Below are positions 7,615 through 44,922 of a stretch of DNA of 64,000 nucleotides, piece by piece (positions within the stretch are counted from its first letter, which is position 1; every line of letters begins with the position of its first letter). Both the position numbers and the translations under genes were made by a program. The notes under the pieces are model-generated. The model worked only from the letters and a program-made list of their open reading frames with translations, made no database searches and had not been told where the DNA came from. The DNA is from Naegleria gruberi (lineage: Eukaryota), in NCBI GenBank assembly GCA_000004985.1, contig GG738855.1; one strand, 5' to 3'.

Positions 7615-8811
7615 TTAAGCAAGACGTTCAATAACAACTGCTGAAGCACCACCACCACCATTACAAATGGAAGCACAACCAATTTCTTGATTTCTATGTT
7701 GGAGAGCACTGATCAAAGTACAGAGAATTCTAGCACCTGAACAACCAATTGGGTGACCCAATGAAACAGCACCACCAAAGATGTTTACATTACTAACATC
7801 CAATCCAAGAATCTTCATATTAGCAAGGGCAACAACAGAGAAAGCTTCATTAACTTCCCACAAATCAACATCACCAATATTAACACCAGCATGTCTCAAA
7901 GCAATTGGAACAGCAGCAGAAGGAGCAGTTGGGAAATCAATTGGAGCCTTTTCAGCATCACCATAACCCAAAATTCTAGCAATTGGCTTCAAACCAGCAT
8001 TCTTGGCCTTTTGTTCACTCATCAAAACTAAAGCAGCACCACCATCAGACAGTGTGGAAGCATTGGCAGCGGTGACAGTACCATCCTTCATAAAAACTGG
8101 CTTGAGTTGTGGAACCTTATCAAAGTTAATGTTAGTATATTCTTCATCTTTTTGGAGATAGCTGACAACATCACCCTTCTTCTTTGTTGGAAGAGCAATC
8201 GAGAACATTTCATTAGCCATATATCCCTTTTCATTAGCTTCACGAGCTCTATTATATGATTCAATTGCATAGTTATCTTGATCTTCACGAGTAATACCAA
8301 ATGATTTGGCAGTATGTTCAGCACACCAACCCATATGTTCATTACTGAAGGCATCAGTCAAACCATCCTTCAAAATTGAGTCAACCAATTTACCATCACC
8401 TAATCTGTGACCAGATCTTCCGTGTGGAACATAATATGGTGCATTACTCATAGATTCAAAACCACCAGCAACAACACAATTATGGATTCCTAATTCAATT
8501 GATTGAGTACCATACATGACAGCCTTCATACCAGAAGCACACATCTTGTTGAGTGTTGTACAAACGACACTATCTGGAAGACCAGCATGAATACAAGCTT
8601 GGCGAGCTGGAGCTTGACCCAAATTAGCAGAAATAACATTGCCCATAATTACTTCTTGTACTTCGGAGAGTGTAACACCTGATTTTTGAAGGGCAGAACG
8701 AATGGCCAATGAACCTAATTTTGGTGCATCAAATCCAGAGAGTTTACCAAGGAAGGAACCGATTGGTGTTCTTTGAGCGGCAACAATAACAGCACGAGTC
8801 TTTAAAGTCAT
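7615..8811 (-). CDS. ACAT: acetyl-CoA acetyltransferase (thiolase II)
   Basis: Strong full-length thiolase similarity (VIVAAQRTPIGSFLG, NKMCASGMKAV, NEAFS, GHPIGCSGARI, CNGGGGASA). The first ATG is at 8811 (MTLKTRAV), so the track ORF start at 8925 is upstream read-through. Confidence 0.9.
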   Translation of the reverse strand: MTLKTRAVIVAAQRTPIGSFLGKLSGFDAPKLGSLAIRSALQKSGVTLSEVQEVIMGNVISANLGQAPARQACIHAGLPDSVVCTTLNKMCASGMKAVMYGTQSIELGIHNCVVAGGFESMSNAPYYVPHGRSGHRLGDGKLVDSILKDGLTDAFSNEHMGWCAEHTAKSFGITREDQDNYAIESYNRAREANEKGYMANEMFSIALPTKKKGDVVSYLQKDEEYTNINFDKVPQLKPVFMKDGTVTAANASTLSDGGAALVLMSEQKAKNAGLKPIARILGYGDAEKAPIDFPTAPSAAVPIALRHAGVNIGDVDLWEVNEAFSVVALANMKILGLDVSNVNIFGGAVSLGHPIGCSGARILCTLISALQHRNQEIGCASICNGGGGASAVVIERLA

Positions 8812-8948
8812 TTTTTTATAATAATTTAATAAATAAATTTTCGCGTTTTTCCATTCAACCAAGAGTATGGACCATTTTAGTTTTGGAAGGAAAAGCGGAT
8901 CTCCATTTTGTAAAGTTAAGCTCAATTGAAATTAATTAATTGAATAAG

Positions 8949-9911
8949 CTAATTGAAAATCTTCCAAATGCCTCTGATTGACTTTTGGTGAACAGCATAT
9001 GGAACCTCAAGAAGACCTCTCAACATTTTCATAATATCTAACCCCATTGTTAAACCGATAATACCAGCAATAGAACCCAATAAACCTGGAATATCTGTCG
9101 ATAGGACTTCATCAATAACTTGAACATCAAGCGTTCCATAAGAGACAGAGATAATAATATCTGCAGAACTGGCATTCGATATTTTGATTTGTGACAAGGT
9201 TGGCTCCCACAGTGTAGTTGAATTCCCATCAAGAAAGTTCTTTGTCACCTTATTCAGAGTATACATATTATCCTTGTATGGAGAAGCAAATTGTGTCTCT
9301 GCAAAAATGTCAGCTTCAGCAGCTATTTCATGGAATGAAATCTGAGCACCATATTTCCCTGCAGTAGGAGCTTTCATTTTAAAGTTCAATGATATTGATC
9401 CTCCAAATCCTGCAGTTGATGTTGTCTTAATACTCTTAATTTCATTATTAAGAAAATAACAATTAAATTTCAGTCCAGAAGTTACAATCTCCTTCTTTTG
9501 ATTTGTAATGGTTGTTGAAGACTTTACTCCAGAGCTGGAGTAAGAATAAGCTCCAGTAAAAGTAATATCACAATAATCACAAGCTTCGGAAGGAGGCTTG
9601 GCATTATAATTACAAATGGTCATCCCAGGAAATTCCATCTTATCCTGAGTGACATACGAGATTGTTGTTGTAGGCTGGTTTTTACTCTTCTCATAGGTAT
9701 CCGATACGTCATAAATATACCAGCCACTAAATCCTAGAAAAATCAACCAACCAATAATTGCGAAAATATCCCTTACTGCAAATTTCCATTTCTTTTTAGG
9801 AGCAGCTGGAGCAGAAATTTGTATACCTATTTTCTCTCCAACCTTTTCAACTCCTTCTACAAGAGTATGCACGGGAACAGTTGAATTCATTTTTTTAAGC
9901 ATGTAGTTCAT
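8949..9911 (-). CDS. ENaC/ASIC/degenerin-family two-TM channel-like protein, paralogue A
   Basis: It has an N-terminal TM helix followed by the FPGMTICNYN motif (compare FPAVTICN of ENaC/ASIC), a roughly 230-aa extracellular-type loop, and a C-terminal TM2 LLGSIAGIIGLTMGLDIMKM (compare [20 protein letters not shown]). Confidence 0.65.
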   Translation of the reverse strand: MNYMLKKMNSTVPVHTLVEGVEKVGEKIGIQISAPAAPKKKWKFAVRDIFAIIGWLIFLGFSGWYIYDVSDTYEKSKNQPTTTISYVTQDKMEFPGMTICNYNAKPPSEACDYCDITFTGAYSYSSSGVKSSTTITNQKKEIVTSGLKFNCYFLNNEIKSIKTTSTAGFGGSISLNFKMKAPTAGKYGAQISFHEIAAEADIFAETQFASPYKDNMYTLNKVTKNFLDGNSTTLWEPTLSQIKISNASSADIIISVSYGTLDVQVIDEVLSTDIPGLLGSIAGIIGLTMGLDIMKMLRGLLEVPYAVHQKSIRGIWKIFN

Positions 9912-10035: not shown

Positions 10036-10977
10036 TTAATTCAAAGCTTCATAGACCAGTCTGTGTTGTTTAGTTTTGACTGCTTCGAATATAATAAACC
10101 CAACTCTTATCATTTTTAGGAGATCCAGGCCGAACAATACACCCAACATACCAGCAATTTCTCCCATCAATTCAGTCCAAGTTTTAGACTCGAATTCATT
10201 TCTAGTTGTAATGTCCAATTTACCATAACCAACAGAAACCACAACTGTTCCATCAGAATAGTTAATTAATTTTACAGAAGACTTCACTGCCTTATAGAGT
10301 GTGTTATCAGTTCTATACTCGACTGATGTCTTTAATCTCTTAATGTTCTCTAAAGAGAGAGTGAAAAAGTTATCATCTCCAACTGATGCAAAATTGAACT
10401 TGGCATGGTCATTATCGACAGAAACACCTTCATCATAAGTATTGAAAAATACATAAAGACCAGCTCTTTTAAGACTATTAATCTTTGAGAAATCATCAAG
10501 TGTAAACTCAAAAGCAATTGATCCACCATATCCACTTTGATTTGATTTGTATTTTGATTTTCCATCTCCATTAAATGTAAAACACTGATACGTGTAGACA
10601 GTACCTGCCTGTGTTACTGTAATTTTTGATGATGAAAGAGTTTCAGTGCAACTCCCTCCAGGAATTGTGCATCCAGTAAAACTTAGTGCTGTATCTGGTA
10701 TTGATGAACAAAATGTTGTCTTGGGAAAGTTCAATGATGAATAAGAAGTGACATCCACTGATACTGGAGGATGGGTCTGAAGATAAGAGTAGCCAGATAT
10801 AACACTCCACATATAAACTCCCAACATTGCAATACTTCCTAGCCATCCGAAAATTACAAGAAATTCTCCATAAGTGTATCCATATTTCTTCTCAAGCTCA
10901 TCTCTTGCTCCTTCTCCACTTCCATCATCGGAATCTTCTTCTGCTCCTAAAACATCAACAGGTTGATCGGTGGTCAT
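10036..10977 (-). CDS. ENaC/ASIC/degenerin-family channel-like protein, paralogue B (tandem duplicate of 8949..9911)
   Basis: Same architecture as paralogue A, with NFPKTTFCSS after TM1, GGSIAFEF, SVGYGKLDI, and TM2 LMGEIAGMLGVLFGLDLLKM. It is colinear with paralogue A. Confidence 0.65.
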   Translation of the reverse strand: MTTDQPVDVLGAEEDSDDGSGEGARDELEKKYGYTYGEFLVIFGWLGSIAMLGVYMWSVISGYSYLQTHPPVSVDVTSYSSLNFPKTTFCSSIPDTALSFTGCTIPGGSCTETLSSSKITVTQAGTVYTYQCFTFNGDGKSKYKSNQSGYGGSIAFEFTLDDFSKINSLKRAGLYVFFNTYDEGVSVDNDHAKFNFASVGDDNFFTLSLENIKRLKTSVEYRTDNTLYKAVKSSVKLINYSDGTVVVSVGYGKLDITTRNEFESKTWTELMGEIAGMLGVLFGLDLLKMIRVGFIIFEAVKTKQHRLVYEALN

Positions 10978-11282
10978 TCTCTATTTCTTCTCTATGTATC
11001 CCTTAATGATGAAAATTTATTAATTTTTTTGAATATGAACTTGTTATTCCCGCGCATTGTACTCTGGAGACATTATTGTAGTGCGATTGATCAGAATGGC
11101 TTGAGGGTTTTGAGGTGAAAGAATGGAAATTGAGCTCCAACTAAGAATAAGTTCCCATTTCAAATAATTGTCAATGGCTCAATGGATTGTTGAGCTTGTA
11201 TGTCAAATTATCACTGTGGCAAAGATTAGACCAAAGAATTCAAGTTTGGTTGCTATGTTTGTCTAAACTTATTGTACTCTAA

Positions 11283-11972
11283 ATGTTTGGTGAAGGAAGA
11301 AAAGAAAAAATGTCATCAAGCAACAACACTCATTCATCATCATCTTCCCTTCTCTTGGATATTGAAGACAATTTGAACAAAAAGAAAGAAAATTCAAATC
11401 CTATTAGTAAACCATCCTTTCTCAAATTATCACAGCAACAAGATGGCACAAATGAAGGAATGCCTAGATTTGCTCCTTCCGAGCTCTTGTCCAGACTACA
11501 AAGCTTTTTACCACAAATTAAAGAAGCAAACGAAAAGCTAGAAAGTGGTGAAGTTGAAGGCTTTTCGGATTGTGTTGAAATTATTGAGAATGATGATGAG
11601 GAGGAACAAGATGGTGCTCAACTTCAAGAGGAAAATTATAATGATGAAGAAGAATCCGAACATAAACCCTATGTGGAGATGAATGTAGTATTGGGAGTAT
11701 TAGAACAAAAACAAAAAACAAGCCTAATTACAGATATAGATGGACCAACAGAGGATGAACAAAAATTGGAAGAAAAAGATGAAGTTGTAAATTTGAGAAT
11801 TGGAAAGGATTTTACTCCACAAGAAAGCAAAAATATTGAACAGGATATGGTGGCATATATGAATATTATGAATTCTCTTCTCGGTTCTTCATCAGCATTG
11901 AAAAGAAAACGAGTAGAGGACAACAGTGATAGTGGCAGTAGTGGTGATAGTAGTGACAGTGATCAAGATTAG
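11283..11972 (+). CDS. hypothetical acidic, Ser-rich protein
   Basis: 229-aa ORF with an acidic low-complexity composition and a C-terminal DSGSSGDSSDSDQD tail. No recognisable domain. Confidence 0.35.
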   Translation: MFGEGRKEKMSSSNNTHSSSSSLLLDIEDNLNKKKENSNPISKPSFLKLSQQQDGTNEGMPRFAPSELLSRLQSFLPQIKEANEKLESGEVEGFSDCVEIIENDDEEEQDGAQLQEENYNDEEESEHKPYVEMNVVLGVLEQKQKTSLITDIDGPTEDEQKLEEKDEVVNLRIGKDFTPQESKNIEQDMVAYMNIMNSLLGSSSALKRKRVEDNSDSGSSGDSSDSDQD

Positions 11973-13420
11973 AACATTACATTTGCTACATATTTACGTT
12001 TCAAGTATTCAGCCATGGTTCTATCCTCTTTTGCTAATTCTGTTTGACCCAATGCCTCATAGGCTTCGCATCTATCTCTGAAAGCAGGGAAGAAGGTATT
12101 ATCAATATTAATTGCTTCAGTATTGTCATTTACACATTTCCAATACTCCTTCTTTCTGAAATATGACAGACCTCTCTTATTAAGTGCATTGACCTTGTAT
12201 TGTTTCAATATTTGTGCATTTGCTGGATTCTTCTTTAAACAAGTGTCAATATATTCCATACAGTATGCGAAATGAGAACGTGCCATTTCATGATCCTCAT
12301 ACTTTGTGTAAGCAATACCTAATTTCACCAAAATATCCACATAAACTGCATTAAAATCAATATTATTTCCTTTGGCAACACAATCCTTCACAAATAAATT
12401 AAAGTGATCAATAAATCTATTGTAGAATGAAAGAGCAACTTGATCATTACCCAATTTTGAGTGACAATCACCAGCATTCATCTCTGCATGGTATTCAGTT
12501 GGATCTATCTTTAAGATCTTATCATAACAACTGACTGCCTCTTTCAGATAATTTTCTCTTTCTTCAACTCGTGTGATTGGCAAAATTTTGGATAATTCTT
12601 CCAAAAAGATACCCTTAGCATAGAGTAGTCCACAATGTGTGTCGTCCTTTTCAATTGCTCCAGAAACGAGCTTGATTCCCTCCTTCAACATGTCAGTTTT
12701 TTGACTGAGGTCATACCTCTTATCTTGTGAAATTGATAACAAGTTGTAAGATAATTTTTCAATAATAGTTGAGGCCAAAACCGATCTATTTTCACACAAT
12801 TCCAAAGATTTTTCGAGAATTTGATTGGCTTCATTAATATTTCCAGTAGCTACATAACAATCATGTAAATTTACACAAATGTCAGAAATTTCATATTTTG
12901 TCAAAGATTCAGTTGGGATCTTTTCACATTGTTCCAGGTAGAATGATCTTAATTCCTCAAATAATGGCTTTGATTTTTCATATTCTCCCAAAGAAAAGAA
13001 CATTGTGCCAAGAAGTTCTTTCAGCTTGTAAATACTGACTTGGTAATGTTCATCACTTTCATCAATTTCTTCCGAAAAAGTAACAATTTTCTTTTCCAAA
13101 TACTTGATGGCATCCTTGTTATCTAAAACCCAAAATTCCTCTGCATTCTTAGCAGCATCACTAATCTTTTTCGAAAGTATTGATTCGTGAAATGGTGCCT
13201 GTATGAGGTGTGATGGTTTTTCTGGTTTTAAATTTGGATTTGTATCGATGGCCTTGTTGGACAAACCTGGCTTTTGATTTAATACCACACCACCATGATG
13301 AAGTGAGAAAGTTTTCAATTGTACTCTAGTATTTCCGAAAAATGTCAATGATGAAGAAGTTTTATAAAGACGATTGAGTCTGAGAATGCTTTGTCCAATC
13401 TTTTTCATTTTTTCTTTCAA
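11969..13420 (-). CDS. TPR-like helical repeat protein
   Basis: 483-aa ORF with repeated roughly 34-aa amphipathic helices (A..Y/F..G pattern). Its stop overlaps the stop of the convergent upstream gene by 4 nt. Confidence 0.45.
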   Translation of the reverse strand: MKEKMKKIGQSILRLNRLYKTSSSLTFFGNTRVQLKTFSLHHGGVVLNQKPGLSNKAIDTNPNLKPEKPSHLIQAPFHESILSKKISDAAKNAEEFWVLDNKDAIKYLEKKIVTFSEEIDESDEHYQVSIYKLKELLGTMFFSLGEYEKSKPLFEELRSFYLEQCEKIPTESLTKYEISDICVNLHDCYVATGNINEANQILEKSLELCENRSVLASTIIEKLSYNLLSISQDKRYDLSQKTDMLKEGIKLVSGAIEKDDTHCGLLYAKGIFLEELSKILPITRVEERENYLKEAVSCYDKILKIDPTEYHAEMNAGDCHSKLGNDQVALSFYNRFIDHFNLFVKDCVAKGNNIDFNAVYVDILVKLGIAYTKYEDHEMARSHFAYCMEYIDTCLKKNPANAQILKQYKVNALNKRGLSYFRKKEYWKCVNDNTEAINIDNTFFPAFRDRCEAYEALGQTELAKEDRTMAEYLKRKYVANVMF

Positions 13421-25997: not shown

Positions 25998-26803
25998 ATG
26001 GCTAAACAACTCTTCCAAGTTCATCATCAGCAGAATCAACAACAACAACATGAAGAGGTGAAAGATGTCATCACGGGATTTGGTATTATCATAGTATTAT
26101 GTTTTTCTCAATATTTGATTGGATTCTTTTTAAATTATAATAACTTTACTTTATACGAATACTTTGCCACATGTGTTGTTTCTTTATTTGCATTTGTTGG
26201 AGGATTTGAACTATATTTCAAAGTAAGTGATTATGATTGATAGGTCAATATCTTAATTATCCACAGTCACAAAGAATTGTAATGGCCAAACCTAGAGATT
26301 TTATCAATTTACATTGTAAATTAGATGACTGGATACCCTTTATTCCTCATGCTATTTATTTGTATTCTTTTGGAGATTTATTTATCATGTCTCTGATTAT
26401 ACCCACCTCACCTGATTTGGAATATTTATTTAGAGTCTTATTTGGAATGCTTCTAGTGACAATTACACAATGTATTTTCTTTGTAATTTTCCCATCCAAT
26501 ACTCCAGATTTCTATCGGGATAGCATAGCTCACTATGAGTCAAAAAACGGAAAGTTGGACAACTTGACAAAGTATTTCTATGAAAAGATGCACAAAGCAG
26601 ATCTGAATATCAACACAGTACCATCAGGCCATTGCTCTCTGGCTACCTATTTGTCACTCACTCAACTCCACATTTTTGGATATTGGACTTTATTGAATCC
26701 ATTGGCAATTGGAATAAGTTGTGTCCTCACCAAACAACATTCAATACTGGACACTTTTGCAGGAGCACTATTTGGATATTTTCTCTTCATTCTCATTCAT
26801 TAA
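25998..26803 (+). CDS. PAP2-superfamily (lipid phosphatase or phosphotransferase-like) membrane protein, join(25998..26222,26267..26803)
   Basis: It has a PSGH motif followed by a QHSILD (HxxxD) motif in a multi-TM context. The two track ORFs are joined by a 44-nt GTAAGT...CAG intron. Confidence 0.55.
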
Positions 26804-26899
26804 ATTCGCTGTATTTCCTTCCTCAATAATATCAAATCACAATTAGAATCTACTCTTTTCCCAACAGCAAAGAAATTAAAAAATCAATTCACATAAAAA

Positions 26900-29637
26900 A
26901 TGGCTGGATTGAAAAAACTTTTAAATAAGAAAAAGTATGTCCTCTCCATGTTTCCCTATCCGAGTGGTAATTTGCACATGGGACATGTTAGAGTGTACAC
27001 AATTTCGGACCTCATTGCTAGGACTCATAAAATGTTAGGGTACAATGTTATTCATCCATTTGGTTTTGATGCCTTTGGATTACCTGCAGAGAATGCTGCC
27101 ATTGAGAGAGGTGTTTCTCCAGCAGATTGGACTCACAAGAATATTGCTCACATGAAGGAACAAATTAAAGCCTTGGATTTTGATTTTGATTGGGAGAGAG
27201 AAGTGATAACTTGCAATCCGGAATATTACAAGTGGACACAATGGCTTTTCCTTCAACTCCACAAGAAGGGATTAGCCTATCAACAAGAAGCTTTGGTAAA
27301 TTGGGATCCGATTGATAATACTGTATTGGCCAATGAACAAGTTGATAGTCAGGGAAGATCTTGGAGATCTGGTGCTTTGGTGGAGAGAAAGAATTTGAGA
27401 CAATGGTTTTTCAAAATTAGAGAATTTGCAAACGTATGTTTAATGCAATATGATTCAGTATTATTTAGTGATGATGATTTTTAAATTTGGAATTTATTAA
27501 TAATTATTCTGTAATTCTGATTTAATGATAATTAATTGATGATTTAATGTTGGATGAATAATATTAATAATAGGAATTATTGGAAGATGCTGATACTTTG
27601 GAAAATTGGCCAATTAATGTTAGAACAATGCAAAAACAATGGATTGGAAAATCGGAAGGAGCTGAATTTTCTTTTGAAACAACTAGTGGAAGTAAGATTA
27701 CTGTCTTTACAACAAGACCAGACACAATTTATGGTGTCACTTATTTAGCTGTTGCTCCAGAAAATGATAAATTAATTGCTGCAATGGTTCCAGAATCGGA
27801 TAAATCTAGAGTTGATGCTTTTATTAAGCGTCTTTCATCATTGACAAGTGTGAAGAGAAATGAAGTTGCCAGCAACTCAAAAGAAGGTTGTTATACTGGT
27901 GTTGATGCTATTCATCCAATCACCAAAGAACGTATTCCAATTTATATTGCCGATTATGTCATTGCTGACTTTGCTGAGGGATGTGTTATGGGAGTCCCAG
28001 CTCACGATACCAGAGATTTTGAATTTGCTCAAAAACACTCCATCCAAGTTAAGAGAGTAATCAAACCACTCGATGATATTGTCGATGAAAATCAATGCTA
28101 CACTGAAAAGAATGGTATTCTCGTTAATTCTGCACAATTTAATGGTATGAAAATTGCTGAAGCTACACCAAAAATTATTCAATTTGCTAAAGAACAAGGT
28201 TTTGGTGGGCCATCTGTCCAATTCAAATTGAGAGATTGGTTAGTTTCAAGACAAAGATACTGGGGTGCACCAATTCCAATCATTCATTGTCCTCAATGTG
28301 GACCTGTTCCAGTTCCTGAAAAGGACTTGCCAGTTCTTTTGCCAACAAATATTGAATTTACTGGTAAGGGACCATCTCCATTGGCCAAAGTTGAAGATTG
28401 GATTAATGTCAAATGTCCATGTGGAAAGGGTATCGATTGTAAACGTGATACTGATACTATGGATACCTTTGTTGATTCATCTTGGTATTTCCACAGATAT
28501 ACCGATGCCAAGAATGATAAGGAGGCATTTAGTGTAGAAAAATCCGATAAGGAAATGAATGTAGATATCTATATTGGAGGTATTGAACATGCCATTCTTC
28601 ACTTGCTCTATTCTAGATTCATTCACAAATTCCTCCACAGTGAAGGATATATGAAACATAAGGAACCATTTGATACTCTCCTCACTCAAGGAATGGTCCA
28701 AGGTGAAACATTCAAAGATTTGGATAACAATAAGTATTACAAACCAGAAGAAATGACAAGATTGGAAGATGGCACAGTTGTAGATAAGAATACTCTCAAA
28801 CCATTGACAAGCGTTTGGGAAAAGATGTCCAAATCCAAATATAATGGTGTAGATCCAGAAGCTGTTGTGAAAGAATTTGGTTCAGATACTGTTCGTCTCT
28901 ACATTCTATTCAAAGCTCCATATGATAAGGAGTTGATGTGGGAACAAAATCAAATTTTGGGGCAACAAAGATTCCTTGCTCGTTTGGATGGTTTGATTTC
29001 CAACTTTGCTAAACGTAAATCTGAAAATGTACAACAATCTGAAGTGGAAACATCTGATGATGAATTCAAATTCTTGAAGGAGATTTATTCTCTCATTGAA
29101 CAAACACGTGAAGGTGTGACATCTCGTTATACATTCAATGTTTGTGTTTCTAATCTCCACAAATATGGTATTGCTCTCCAAGAATATGAAGAAAAGATTG
29201 GAAATACTAAGGCTTATGAAGAAGCAATGCTTTTGTTACCATCTGTTATGGCCCCTTTCACACCAATATTTGCTGAAAAGACCTTCAAGACAGTGACAGC
29301 TCATTTACCAAAAGATCACCCACTCAAACAATGTACATCTGTGTTCGAAACTGCCTTCCCAACTGTTACTCCAAGCGAAATTAAGGTTGAAAAGAAGAGT
29401 CAACTCTGTGTCGTGCAAGTGAACGGTAAGAGAAGAGACGAGCTCCAAATTCCAATGTCCCTTTTAAAGATTGCCAACAATTCTGAAAGACAAACAGCTG
29501 TTGAATCATTTGTTATGAGTAACAGTAGAGTTATTGCTATCAAGAGGGAACAAAATGAAACATTCAAAAAGATTATTCACGTCGACAAGATGAAACATCA
29601 ATATGTAATCAATTACATTGTCGAAGAAAAAGAATAA
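26900..29637 (+). CDS. LARS2: leucyl-tRNA synthetase, bacterial/mitochondrial type, join(26900..27433,27574..29637)
   Basis: It has the HMGH motif ([15 protein letters not shown]) and a bacterial LeuRS layout. FAN|[13 protein letters not shown] aligns with the E. coli sequence ADELLNDLDKLDHWPD. A KMSKS-like [11 protein letters not shown] motif is present. The 140-nt intron has a GTATGT donor. Confidence 0.9.
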
Positions 29638-29641
29638 AAAT

Positions 29642-31129
29642 TTATCTCTTTGGTGGCCTTATCAATTGTTTCTTCACTTTCATTGGGAACATGTTGGCAA
29701 AGAACATTGGATCTTTCATCATTTGTTCACTCATTTTCTTTGGATCCTTCATGGCTGCTGAACCAGCCTTACTGATGAATGATTTCATCTTTTCGTACAT
29801 CTTGAGCATCTTGTTTACATCGGTAACTTCAACCTTAGCTCTCTTAGCCAAGTCCAATCTTCTGGCACTCGATGATTCAACCAAGAGAGGTTGCAATTTT
29901 TCTTGTTCAGACATGCAACTAATGATATGTTCGTGATTATCAATGAATGACAAGTCCATATTATCCAATTTATCTCTGAATTTACCAATAAATTGTTCTG
30001 GAAGGTAACTGGCCATATTTTTCAGAGATCCCATCTTTTTAAGCATTTGAATTTGATCTTGATAATCCTTGAATGTGTATGCACCCTTACTGAATTGAAC
30101 AAGTTTTTGTTGAGCTTGAGCAGCATCCAAATTCATGGCATCCTTAGCTTTTTGAGCGAGAGTCATAATGTCACCTCCACCCAAAATTCTCTTAGCCAAA
30201 CTTTGGGGATCAAAAGTTTCCAAATCATCCATCCTTTCACCAATACCAATATATTTAACACTCAAACCAACAACTTGTTTCATACTGATAGCACAACCAC
30301 CACTGCTAGTACCATCCATTCTTGTCAAAACAATACCAGATAAACCAACACGATCGTGGAATTGAGTAGCAATATTCACAGCGTCGTTACCAAGCATAGA
30401 GTCTGCAACCAACAAGGTTTCATTTGGTTGAACAATAGCTCTTAATTCTTCCAATTCTGTCATGAGTTGTTCGTCAATGTGCATTCTACCAGCTGTATCG
30501 AAAATTACAGTATCAAATTGTTCACCATTTGGACCCACATATTCCATAGCTCTCTTTGCAATTTCAATTGGATTTTGTTCTGGAATAATTGGAAGTGATT
30601 CGACTTGAATTTGTTGAGCCAATGTTTGAAGCTGCATTTGAGCTGCAGGTCTGTAAGTATCAAGTGATACCAACAAGACTCTTCTATTTTCCTTTCTCTT
30701 TAATTGTAAAGCCAACTTGGCACTCGATGTGGTTTTACCAGAACCTTGAATACCTGTCACCATGATAACTGATTTACCTTCAGTGGATGGAATTAATTCC
30801 AAAGGAGCAACACCTCCACCCAACAATTCTGAAAGTCTATCCATCACCATCAAGTAAACAGTAGCAGATTTTGGTAATTCTTCAGCTTTTTGATTCGGAC
30901 CAACCCATTTTGCAATACGTGACAGTATTCCCTTATTTTCCTGTGATTCAACTTGTTTAACAGCTGCAATACCAATGGCATCCTCAGTGGCTTCCTTCAC
31001 AAATTGTGAAACAACAGATTCAGCAACATCAGCATCCAACAAGGCAACTCTAACTTTTTGCATGGCCTCTTCGACATCTTCCTTGGTGAGTGTCTTCTTT
31101 TTGAAGAGATTAGTAAAAGCATCAGACAT
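29642..31129 (-). CDS. ffh: Ffh-type (bacterial/organellar) signal recognition particle protein SRP54 homologue
   Basis: N, G and M domains are present, and the diagnostic residues are bacterial: DTYRPAAQMQL against eukaryotic DTFRAGAF, and DTAGRMHIDEQLM against eukaryotic DTSGRHKQ. It carries a Met-rich M domain. The first ATG is at 31129. The track extension to 31189 starts at GTG. Confidence 0.85.
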   Translation of the reverse strand: MSDAFTNLFKKKTLTKEDVEEAMQKVRVALLDADVAESVVSQFVKEATEDAIGIAAVKQVESQENKGILSRIAKWVGPNQKAEELPKSATVYLMVMDRLSELLGGGVAPLELIPSTEGKSVIMVTGIQGSGKTTSSAKLALQLKRKENRRVLLVSLDTYRPAAQMQLQTLAQQIQVESLPIIPEQNPIEIAKRAMEYVGPNGEQFDTVIFDTAGRMHIDEQLMTELEELRAIVQPNETLLVADSMLGNDAVNIATQFHDRVGLSGIVLTRMDGTSSGGCAISMKQVVGLSVKYIGIGERMDDLETFDPQSLAKRILGGGDIMTLAQKAKDAMNLDAAQAQQKLVQFSKGAYTFKDYQDQIQMLKKMGSLKNMASYLPEQFIGKFRDKLDNMDLSFIDNHEHIISCMSEQEKLQPLLVESSSARRLDLAKRAKVEVTDVNKMLKMYEKMKSFISKAGSAAMKDPKKMSEQMMKDPMFFANMFPMKVKKQLIRPPKR

Positions 31130-31617
31130 ATTAGAGGTCAAGTTTGAAAATAGACCATATTGTTTTGGTGAAGAGTGGAAGAATCTCACTTGTTGTTGAT
31201 TGTATTGTTGAAGAACATTTGGAGCCCAACATTCTTGTTATTTGATGAAAATAAACTTGTATGATGGCACAAGGCTGGTGAAAATACTTCCGATGATGAA
31301 AAGACAATTTTACAGTGATGATGTGTGTTGGCTGTCTTTAAAAATCGTGAGAGGAGAGAACGACTATTACTTTTAAACATTTTTTTCTAATCTGTGTTGT
31401 TTTATTATTATAATTGTTTCTTCATGTATCTAATTGATGTGATGATAACAAATTGTTGTACTATTAGATATTATGAACGACGACAATTAAATAATTAATA
31501 TTATATTATAGTTTTTATTGTTTGAAAAAGGTGTCGAAAATTAAAATCAACCAAAACAAAGACCCATTTTGGTTAATATTGTTGTTATTGTTGGTGTTAA
31601 AAGGTGGTAGAGTAGAA

Positions 31618-32286
31618 TTATTGTTTACCTCCGATGATAGACTTCAAGTGTTCGTTGAGCTTGGTTGGTGTATTCTTCCATGAGTGAGAAGTAACAAGAT
31701 TGTAGGTGGAAATGGTTGGTTTGACTGGATATTGAACAAAGAAAGTTTGAGCAGCTTCTTCTTCTCCATTGACAAGATAAGAGTACAGCAAAGCATTACG
31801 CAAGGAAGCAACTTCTCTATCAGTTGAAGCTCTCTTAATATATAATCCAAAGGTAAGTTCAGCATCAGGTACGCTACCAACTTGACCGAAAGCAGCAATA
31901 ATCTTGGCCATATCATCAATTTCCAAATCACGTGGGTGAGCATCGTAGTGTTGCTTGAGAGAAATGAGAGACTTGTAGTCGCTTGCCTTGGCAAATTCTA
32001 AAGCAGCATCACCACGTGATACCTTTCCTTCTCTTTCCTTTTTCAATTCGGCCAATCCATTCCAATTTCCTTCATAAACAAGGTCGAAAACCTTCTTGGC
32101 ATCTTGTTGTTTGAAAGAACTGGATCCAATTTTATATTCGTCTTCGCCGAATGGTGTAATAGAAAGAGATCTTGTTGTGGTGTGGAAAGAGTGTGATGAG
32201 AGGAAGACTCTTGAAGGAAGAACGGAAGAAGACTTCTTTGTACAAGCCTTGCAGATGTTGATGAGGGTGGATTTTTGGGCTGGCAT
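31618..32286 (-). CDS. hypothetical mitochondrial-type helical (PPR/TPR-like) protein
   Basis: It has a presequence-like N-terminus (MPAQKSTLINICKACTKKSSSVLPSRVFLSSHSFHTTTRSL) followed by roughly 35-aa helical repeats. Confidence 0.4.
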   Translation of the reverse strand: MPAQKSTLINICKACTKKSSSVLPSRVFLSSHSFHTTTRSLSITPFGEDEYKIGSSSFKQQDAKKVFDLVYEGNWNGLAELKKEREGKVSRGDAALEFAKASDYKSLISLKQHYDAHPRDLEIDDMAKIIAAFGQVGSVPDAELTFGLYIKRASTDREVASLRNALLYSYLVNGEEEAAQTFFVQYPVKPTISTYNLVTSHSWKNTPTKLNEHLKSIIGGKQ

Positions 32287-39080: not shown

Positions 39081-39199
39081 GGTTACGGCCATATCACGAT
39101 GAATGCACCTCATCCCGTCCGATTTGAGAAGTTAAGCATCGTCGAGCCACATCAGTACTGAGGTTGGAGACAACTTGGGAACCTCTGGTGCTGTAGTCT
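39081..39199 (+). rRNA. rrn5: 5S ribosomal RNA gene (119 nt), dispersed single copy
   Basis: The 5' end GGTTACGGCCATA and the 3' end GGTGCTGTAGTCT pair as 5S helix I. An internal ...CCGATTTGAGAAGTTAAGC... matches the loop B and helix III region. A T6 run at the 3' end (CTTTTTT) is a Pol III terminator. Confidence 0.85.
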
Positions 39200-44850: not shown

Positions 44851-44922
44851 TGGCTATTGAGGGGATTGAACCCTCGACCTTCTCCTTACGAGAGAGAAGC
44901 TCTACCACTGAGCTAAACAGCC
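44851..44922 (-). tRNA. tRNA-Thr(CGU): tRNA-Thr (anticodon CGU)
   Basis: The reverse complement folds as a cloverleaf. The acceptor pairs GGCTGTT with AATAGCC. The D-arm is GCTC-AGTGGTA-GAGC. The anticodon loop is CTCGTAA. The T-arm is GAGGG-TTCAATC-CCCTC. A T-run lies 8 nt downstream. Confidence 0.85.

Follow-up and report, generated by a model that had tools for sequence, protein, structure and literature searches.

A nuclear gene for a bacterial-type mitochondrial Ffh in Naegleria gruberi: reading frame, affinities and genomic setting

The Ffh gene and its corrected reading frame

In a 64,000-nucleotide stretch of the Naegleria gruberi genome (contig GG738855.1 of the public NEG-M assembly, GCA_000004985.1; hereafter the window), a gene for Ffh, the bacterial-type counterpart of SRP54 in the signal recognition particle (SRP), converges tail-to-tail on a gene for a bacterial-type leucyl-tRNA synthetase (LeuRS). 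The Ffh gene occupies 29642..31380 (−) as a single exon without introns and encodes 579 amino acids (aa) once one missing base is restored, while the LeuRS gene lies at 26900..29637 (+). The same Ffh gene has been published as NgFfh, or mtFfh, under accession XP_002680081.1 (Pyrih et al., 2021, Mol Biol Evol 38:3170; PMC8321541). We found no difference between the two: the window represents the uncorrected public assembly, its sequence shows the assembly defect described for NgFfh, and an adjoining ORF takes the place of the upstream gene listed in that paper. We are highly confident that the locus is a single-exon nuclear mtFfh gene, that its protein is imported into the mitochondrial matrix, and that the convergent LeuRS gene is an unrelated neighbour.

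As assembled, the open reading frame (ORF) is uninterrupted over 29642..31189 (−), corresponding to 515 aa when counted from a GTG or 495 aa when counted from the ATG at 31129. It encodes an N domain (SRP54_N helical bundle; Pfam PF02881, E 9.5e-12) at 30956..31141 (−), a G domain (SRP54-type GTPase; PF00448, E 1.1e-66) at 30179..30772 (−) with the motifs GIQGSGKTT, DTYRPAA, DTAGR, and TRMDG, and an M domain (SRP_SPB, signal-peptide-binding; PF02978, E 5.7e-18) at 29777..30079 (−), in which the SRP-RNA-binding motif is degenerate (SSARRLDLAKRAK). Each of the three matches exceeds its cut-off, and the N, G, and M set is complete. DTYRPAA and DTAGRMHIDE, which an earlier note on this DNA had picked out, are both present in the translation. 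In our alignment of mtFfh with its relatives and four alphaproteobacterial Ffh proteins, the columns that hold the GTPase motifs (GSGKTT, DTAGR, RMDG) are invariant or nearly so.

The public N. gruberi model (470 aa) lacks 25 residues, VVSQFVKEATEDAIGIAAVKQVESQ, that are encoded at 30941..31015 (−) and correspond to residues 59-83 of the 515-aa ORF. These residues lie within the N domain and are conserved in every aligned relative, and two peptides detected by mass spectrometry (MS) cover them (Pyrih et al., 2021). Because they are both conserved and covered by peptides, the intron of the public model is false and the residues are real, so that the uninterrupted reading given in the earlier note is to be preferred to the database model.

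At the 5′ end, by contrast, the methionine at 31129 that the earlier note took as the start is internal, and the true start is the ATG at 31380, 251 bases further upstream (84 codons in the corrected coding sequence, CDS). The frame from this ATG reads MFKSNSRSLLSRFLK...NVGLQ and then meets a stop in the sequence as assembled. When every single-base insertion within the first 260 bases of this frame was tried, the sole insertion that gave the published protein was a C between 31219 and 31218 (−), GGGCTCCAA[C]ATGTTC, which yields the 579-aa ORF. The public assembly thus has a one-base deletion at 31218..31219 (−), where the frame is broken between the presequence and the body of the protein; with the extra C, the minus strand would read GGGCTCCAACATGTTC there. 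The first 421 residues of the corrected ORF equal the corrected NgFfh in Table S1 of Pyrih et al. (2021), exactly so over the stretch quoted, and the remainder agrees with the public model at each of its 470 residues. Pyrih et al. described errors in the public model both in its CDS limits and through a genome assembly issue; they ascribed the break in the frame to the latter on the basis of trace reads, with confirmation by 5′ transcript amplification.

Features of the N-terminal region fit the corrected frame. Upstream of 31129 the main frame contains no ATG, although conserved residues are located there, and translation must therefore enter from another frame. The bacterial start MFDxL aligns to LFSNL, eight residues upstream of Met 31129, with its Phe nearly invariant across the alignment, and the mtFfh proteins of Naegleria and Willaertia have the segment FHSSxxxYGLFSNLTSN conserved between them. 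The colinearity of MSDAFTNL with the Escherichia coli start MFDNLT, as previously suggested, is therefore off by eight residues. The 83 residues that precede Met 31129 (31132..31380, −) include 8 R+K, 1 D+E, and 19 S+T, a composition typical of a presequence, and we designate this region as the mitochondrial presequence; counted to the equivalent of the bacterial start, the extension is about 75 residues long. In the alignment the relatives also have N-terminal extensions, which bacterial Ffh proteins lack. A separate upstream presequence exon and intron were considered and are unneeded, since one inserted base links the ATG at 31380 to the body of the protein. We likewise rejected a donor-like GTGAGA site located at the ORF's GTG, as splicing there would delete the conserved LFSNLT...AF N-terminus.

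Affinity of the protein and the published mitochondrial system

The product of 29642..31129 was originally described as Ffh-like rather than cytosolic SRP54-like, and the model scores bear this out. Among the NCBIfam models, the bacterial ffh model (TIGR00959) gives 399 bits and is the best-scoring one by a wide margin, whereas the eukaryotic SRP54 model (SRP54_euk, TIGR01425) gives 215.2 bits, well under its cut-off of 576.25, so that the protein does not classify as cytosolic SRP54. Scores against solved structures follow the same order: the top Ffh chain, 7o5b_g, which we take to be Bacillus subtilis Ffh, reaches 282 bits and other full-length Ffh chains 224-256 bits, compared to approximately 206 bits for archaeal-type SRP54 and approximately 143 bits for mammalian SRP54. 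Cytosolic SRP54 has the three-domain architecture in common with mtFfh, but it carries the motifs FRAGA and DTSGR where mtFfh has YRPAA and DTAGR.

The best match in the protein collection is a "predicted protein [Naegleria gruberi]" of 470 aa, identical at 470/470 positions apart from the 25-residue gap, followed by two Naegleria-like sequences (78% identity) and a Willaertia magna sequence (68% identity). Further down, with the exception of a single protein from Acrasis kona, every named match is an Ffh of Alphaproteobacteria with 40-45% identity, including those of Commensalibacter, Skermanella, Sphingomonadales, Arboricoccus, Ferrovibrio, Novispirillum, and Acidocella. The likeness to bacterial Ffh, especially that of Alphaproteobacteria, extends over the N, G, and M domains and the motifs GxxGSGKTT, DTYRPAA, DTAGR, and T[KR]xDG, and the proteins are colinear from MFDxL/LFSNL through the M domain. 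The mitochondrial protein differs from its bacterial counterparts in its presequence of about 75-83 residues, an insertion in the N domain, TSSGG in place of DARGG, and SSARRLDLAKRAK in place of SRKRRIAxGSG; in addition, Pyrih et al. (2021) know of no SRP RNA partner for it. The scores from hidden Markov models, from PDB chains, and from best hits agree with the published trees.

[quoted passage not shown] The same authors found NgFfh in the mitochondrial proteome of N. gruberi as defined by LOPIT (organelle proteins localised through isotope tagging), in which the protein is covered by MS peptides and co-fractionates with mitochondrial markers, unlike cytosolic SRP54, which tracks markers of the endoplasmic reticulum. 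They also reported that the N-terminal leader alone, and likewise the full CDS, sends mNeonGreen to the Trypanosoma brucei mitochondrion, and identified a partner, mtFtsY (XP_002682642.1).

The organellar reading in the earlier note is correct: the nucleus of this protist, which has no plastid, encodes a bacterial-type Ffh that serves the mitochondrion. Each of the checks proposed there (a phylogeny, searches for FtsY and for a 4.5S-like RNA, definition of the 5′ end, and tagged localisation) had already been carried out on this gene (PMC8321541). The locus had also been presented as a further example of a mitochondrial Ffh; it is instead the founding one, XP_002680081.1. It is the type example of a published system, and the feature is real, was correctly interpreted, and is already known. 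A full-text search for "mtFfh" in the literature available to us returned no paper later than Pyrih et al. (2021). Minor points that the main text of that paper does not make explicit are the N-domain insertion together with the change of DARGG to TSSGG, the lack of a conserved linkage to LeuRS, and an apparent tandem duplication in Willaertia.

SRP RNA, FtsY and the mode of action

The published data show that mtFfh is encoded in the nucleus, is imported by means of its presequence, and resides in mitochondria; we take it to be synthesised in the cytosol with this N-terminal extension, some 80 residues long, and to enter the matrix. By homology, it would then pair through its N and G (NG) domains with mtFtsY at the inner membrane in a GTP-dependent manner. 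The nascent chain would then be passed on to Oxa1, a step that we propose because organisms with mtFfh have no SecY (Pyrih et al., 2021). In this respect the predicted system differs from that of cpSRP54, which uses plastid SecY/Alb3 and, in land plants, cpSRP43; in the account of Pyrih et al., mtFfh has no SecY and no known extra factor. When nine N. gruberi mitochondrion-encoded N-termini were tested in T. brucei in that study, seven behaved like signal peptides for the SRP.

RNA seems to be missing from the particle. In alignment columns 601-640, the bacterial motif SRK(K/R)RIAxGSG is replaced by SSARRLDLAKRAK in mtFfh, with a two-residue insertion, and Pyrih et al. (2021) also described the RNA-binding motifs of mtFfh as mutated. 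Their covariance-model searches found bacterial-type SRP RNA to be absent from the nuclear genomes, and their comparison of mitogenome intergenic regions revealed no candidate SRP RNA gene. Within the 64-kb window, no SRP RNA reached the Rfam gathering score, and tblastn revealed no second SRP-type GTPase or FtsY. The chloroplast system offers a parallel, as in many lineages cpSRP54 functions free of RNA and carries mutations in its RNA-binding motifs (PMC8321541).

Further changes affect sites of importance to the SRP GTPase cycle of bacteria. Naegleria and Willaertia mtFfh share TSSGG in place of the conserved DARGG in the loop at the N-G interface (DGTSSGG at approximately 30323..30337, −), an N-domain insertion of about 25-35 residues (ENKGILSRIAKWVGPNQKAEE..., approximately 30860..30950, −), and the loss of the RNA-binding GSG. 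Acrasis and two related environmental sequences (P0005 and P0006) keep D[VA]RGG and have no N-domain insertion, and bacterial Ffh proteins likewise lack both the insertion and the TSSGG change. It is conceivable, although we consider it rather unlikely, that through these derived changes the Naegleria/Willaertia sub-lineage evolved a protein-only acceleration of the Ffh-FtsY interaction, which is the role of SRP RNA in bacteria.

Several points weigh against our interpretation of the gene and its product. The 399 bits obtained with TIGR00959, spread over two stretches, fall below the equivalog cut-off of 473.2, a score that is lowered by the insertion in the N domain and by the divergence of the M domain. 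What the window shows by itself is that a single extra base is required and suffices, and the correction of the frameshift depends on the reads and 5′ transcript amplification of the published study. The localisation comes from fractionation and a heterologous host rather than from tagging in Naegleria, and none of the organisms that carry mtFfh is genetically tractable (Pyrih et al., 2021). Finally, the alignment shows alterations in the DARGG loop as well as in the RNA-binding motif, and the GTPase cycle of mtFfh may differ from the bacterial one.

These last alterations, together with the loss of the SRP RNA, also favour an alternative in which mtFfh is mitochondrial but its action is post-translational, with imported nucleus-encoded proteins as substrates, like that of cpSRP54 on light-harvesting chlorophyll-binding proteins, or in which it serves some purpose other than membrane targeting; Pyrih et al. 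(2021) themselves left the post-translational mode open. We regard this alternative as improbable, though it is the likeliest of those considered. According to the same study, mtFfh and mtFtsY are kept or lost together, and the gene-rich mitogenomes of their carriers encode soluble as well as membrane proteins; the signal-peptide behaviour of seven of the nine mitochondrion-encoded N-termini in T. brucei also argues against it.

Neighbouring genes, other alternatives and significance

The convergent LeuRS gene encodes 865 aa after splicing of exon 1 (26900..27433, +) to exon 2 (27574..29637, +), with removal of a 140-nt intron (27434..27573, +; GTATGT..AG) that rejoins ...FKIREFAN|.... Its assignment as bacterial-type in the earlier note is confirmed: the part encoded by exon 2 scores 632.7 bits with leuS_bact (TIGR00396; cut-off 548.4) vs. 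83.9 bits with leuS_arch, and Pfam detects tRNA-synt_1 and a LeuRS editing domain. Bacterial-type LeuRS in eukaryotes is organellar, and it is reasonable to regard this one, which we list as presumed mitochondrial, as the mitochondrial enzyme. The start of the gene (region 26804..26968, +) lies 96 bp past the stop of a PAP2-like gene and shows no obvious presequence; its ORF presumably begins about 30 residues inside the bacterial N-terminus, judging from E. coli LeuS. This points either to an unusual 5′ end of the LeuRS gene or to a missing upstream exon. The PAP2-like gene itself is represented by two adjoining ORFs (25998..26240 and 26237..26803, +), the second of which matches the PAP2 superfamily (PAP2_3, E 1e-9). 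Together they probably make up a single membrane phosphatase-like gene that is interrupted by a short intron or a frameshift.

The spacing of 4 bp between the two stops had been noted before and is correct: the LeuRS stop TAA ends at 29637, the TTA at 29642..29644 is the Ffh stop on the opposite strand, and the sequence reads AAAT in between (29638..29641). Since any 3′ untranslated region of one gene would overlap the other gene, the junction might be functional, with overlapping 3′ ends that co-regulate two genes related to mitochondrial translation. However, we found no LeuRS gene in the flanks of Ffh in Willaertia magna (L001) or at two Naegleria-like loci (contigs L002/L003 and L004), and genes in the N. 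gruberi genome are closely packed, with little space between them, which makes a functional junction very unlikely. The 4-bp arrangement is best explained as specific to N. gruberi and due to its gene-dense genome rather than to functional coupling, and we detect no meaning in it, as the linkage is absent at all three related Ffh loci.

Upstream of mtFfh, the ORF at 31618..32286 (−) encodes 222 aa with an S/T/K-rich N-terminus (MPAQKSTLINICKACTKKSSSVLPSRVFLSSHSFHTTTRSL) that resembles a presequence. Table S1 of Pyrih et al. (2021) gives the gene directly upstream of mtFfh as XP_002680082.1, a pentatricopeptide repeat (PPR) protein, and we infer from position, not from sequence comparison, that the ORF is this gene. 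A Pfam scan of its product at E≤1, including a test for PPR repeats, returned no match. This neighbour, too, was absent when sought in the flanks of the same three Ffh loci. In Willaertia magna (JBEGDK010000031.1), two mtFfh genes lie in tandem at 8001..9701 and 10627..12327 with 100% identical CDSs (1701/1701 nt), within a direct repeat of about 2.2 kb that has 99.2% identity; the pair is either the product of a duplication of very recent date or an artefact of the assembly.

The best matches outside Heterolobosea are bacterial Ffh proteins at 40-45% identity, as would also be expected from bacterial contamination or from recent horizontal transfer of a bacterial ffh without an organellar role. 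We consider this extremely improbable. The genomic context is nuclear and eukaryotic: the GC content of the gene (approximately 0.36) is the same as that of the rest of the window (uniformly approximately 0.35), the adjoining LeuRS gene, only 4 bp away, contains a spliceosomal GT..AG intron, and the window also includes, interspersed with its protein-coding genes, a 5S rRNA gene (39081..39199, +; 98.8 bits) and a tRNA gene (44851..44922, −; 69.5 bits). Orthologues with 68-78% identity are located among eukaryotic genes on Willaertia and Naegleria-like contigs, and mtFfh has a eukaryote-specific N-terminal extension. The monophyletic eukaryotic clade over four lineages, the 5′ transcript amplification, and the MS peptides reported by Pyrih et al. 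(2021) likewise speak against contamination or transfer.

There is next to no chance that mtFfh is a plastid-type cpSRP54 and the relic of a lost plastid: cpSRP54 is likewise a nucleus-encoded Ffh derivative that is imported into an endosymbiotic organelle, has an organellar FtsY partner, and often lacks the RNA-binding motif, but it is of cyanobacterial ancestry and belongs to another organelle, whereas the named top matches of mtFfh are alphaproteobacterial and not cyanobacterial, the chloroplast SRP54 NG domain (196 bits) scores no higher than bacterial NG-only chains (202-231 bits) among solved structures, the published trees set mtFfh apart from cpSRP54, and the protein co-fractionates with mitochondrial markers (PMC8321541).

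Overall, the practical value of the locus lies in quality control, as the public N. gruberi data contain a one-base deletion at 31218/31219, a wrong 5′ end, and a false intron. Anyone who reads the raw assembly sequence alone will overlook the mtFfh presequence, as the earlier note did in part. For the evolution of mitochondria, the wider conclusion was drawn in 2021 from this same gene, and thus the locus contributes nothing new to it: the presence of a mitochondrial SRP implies that the last eukaryotic common ancestor kept bacterial co-translational targeting in its mitochondria, and that most lineages lost the SRP later.

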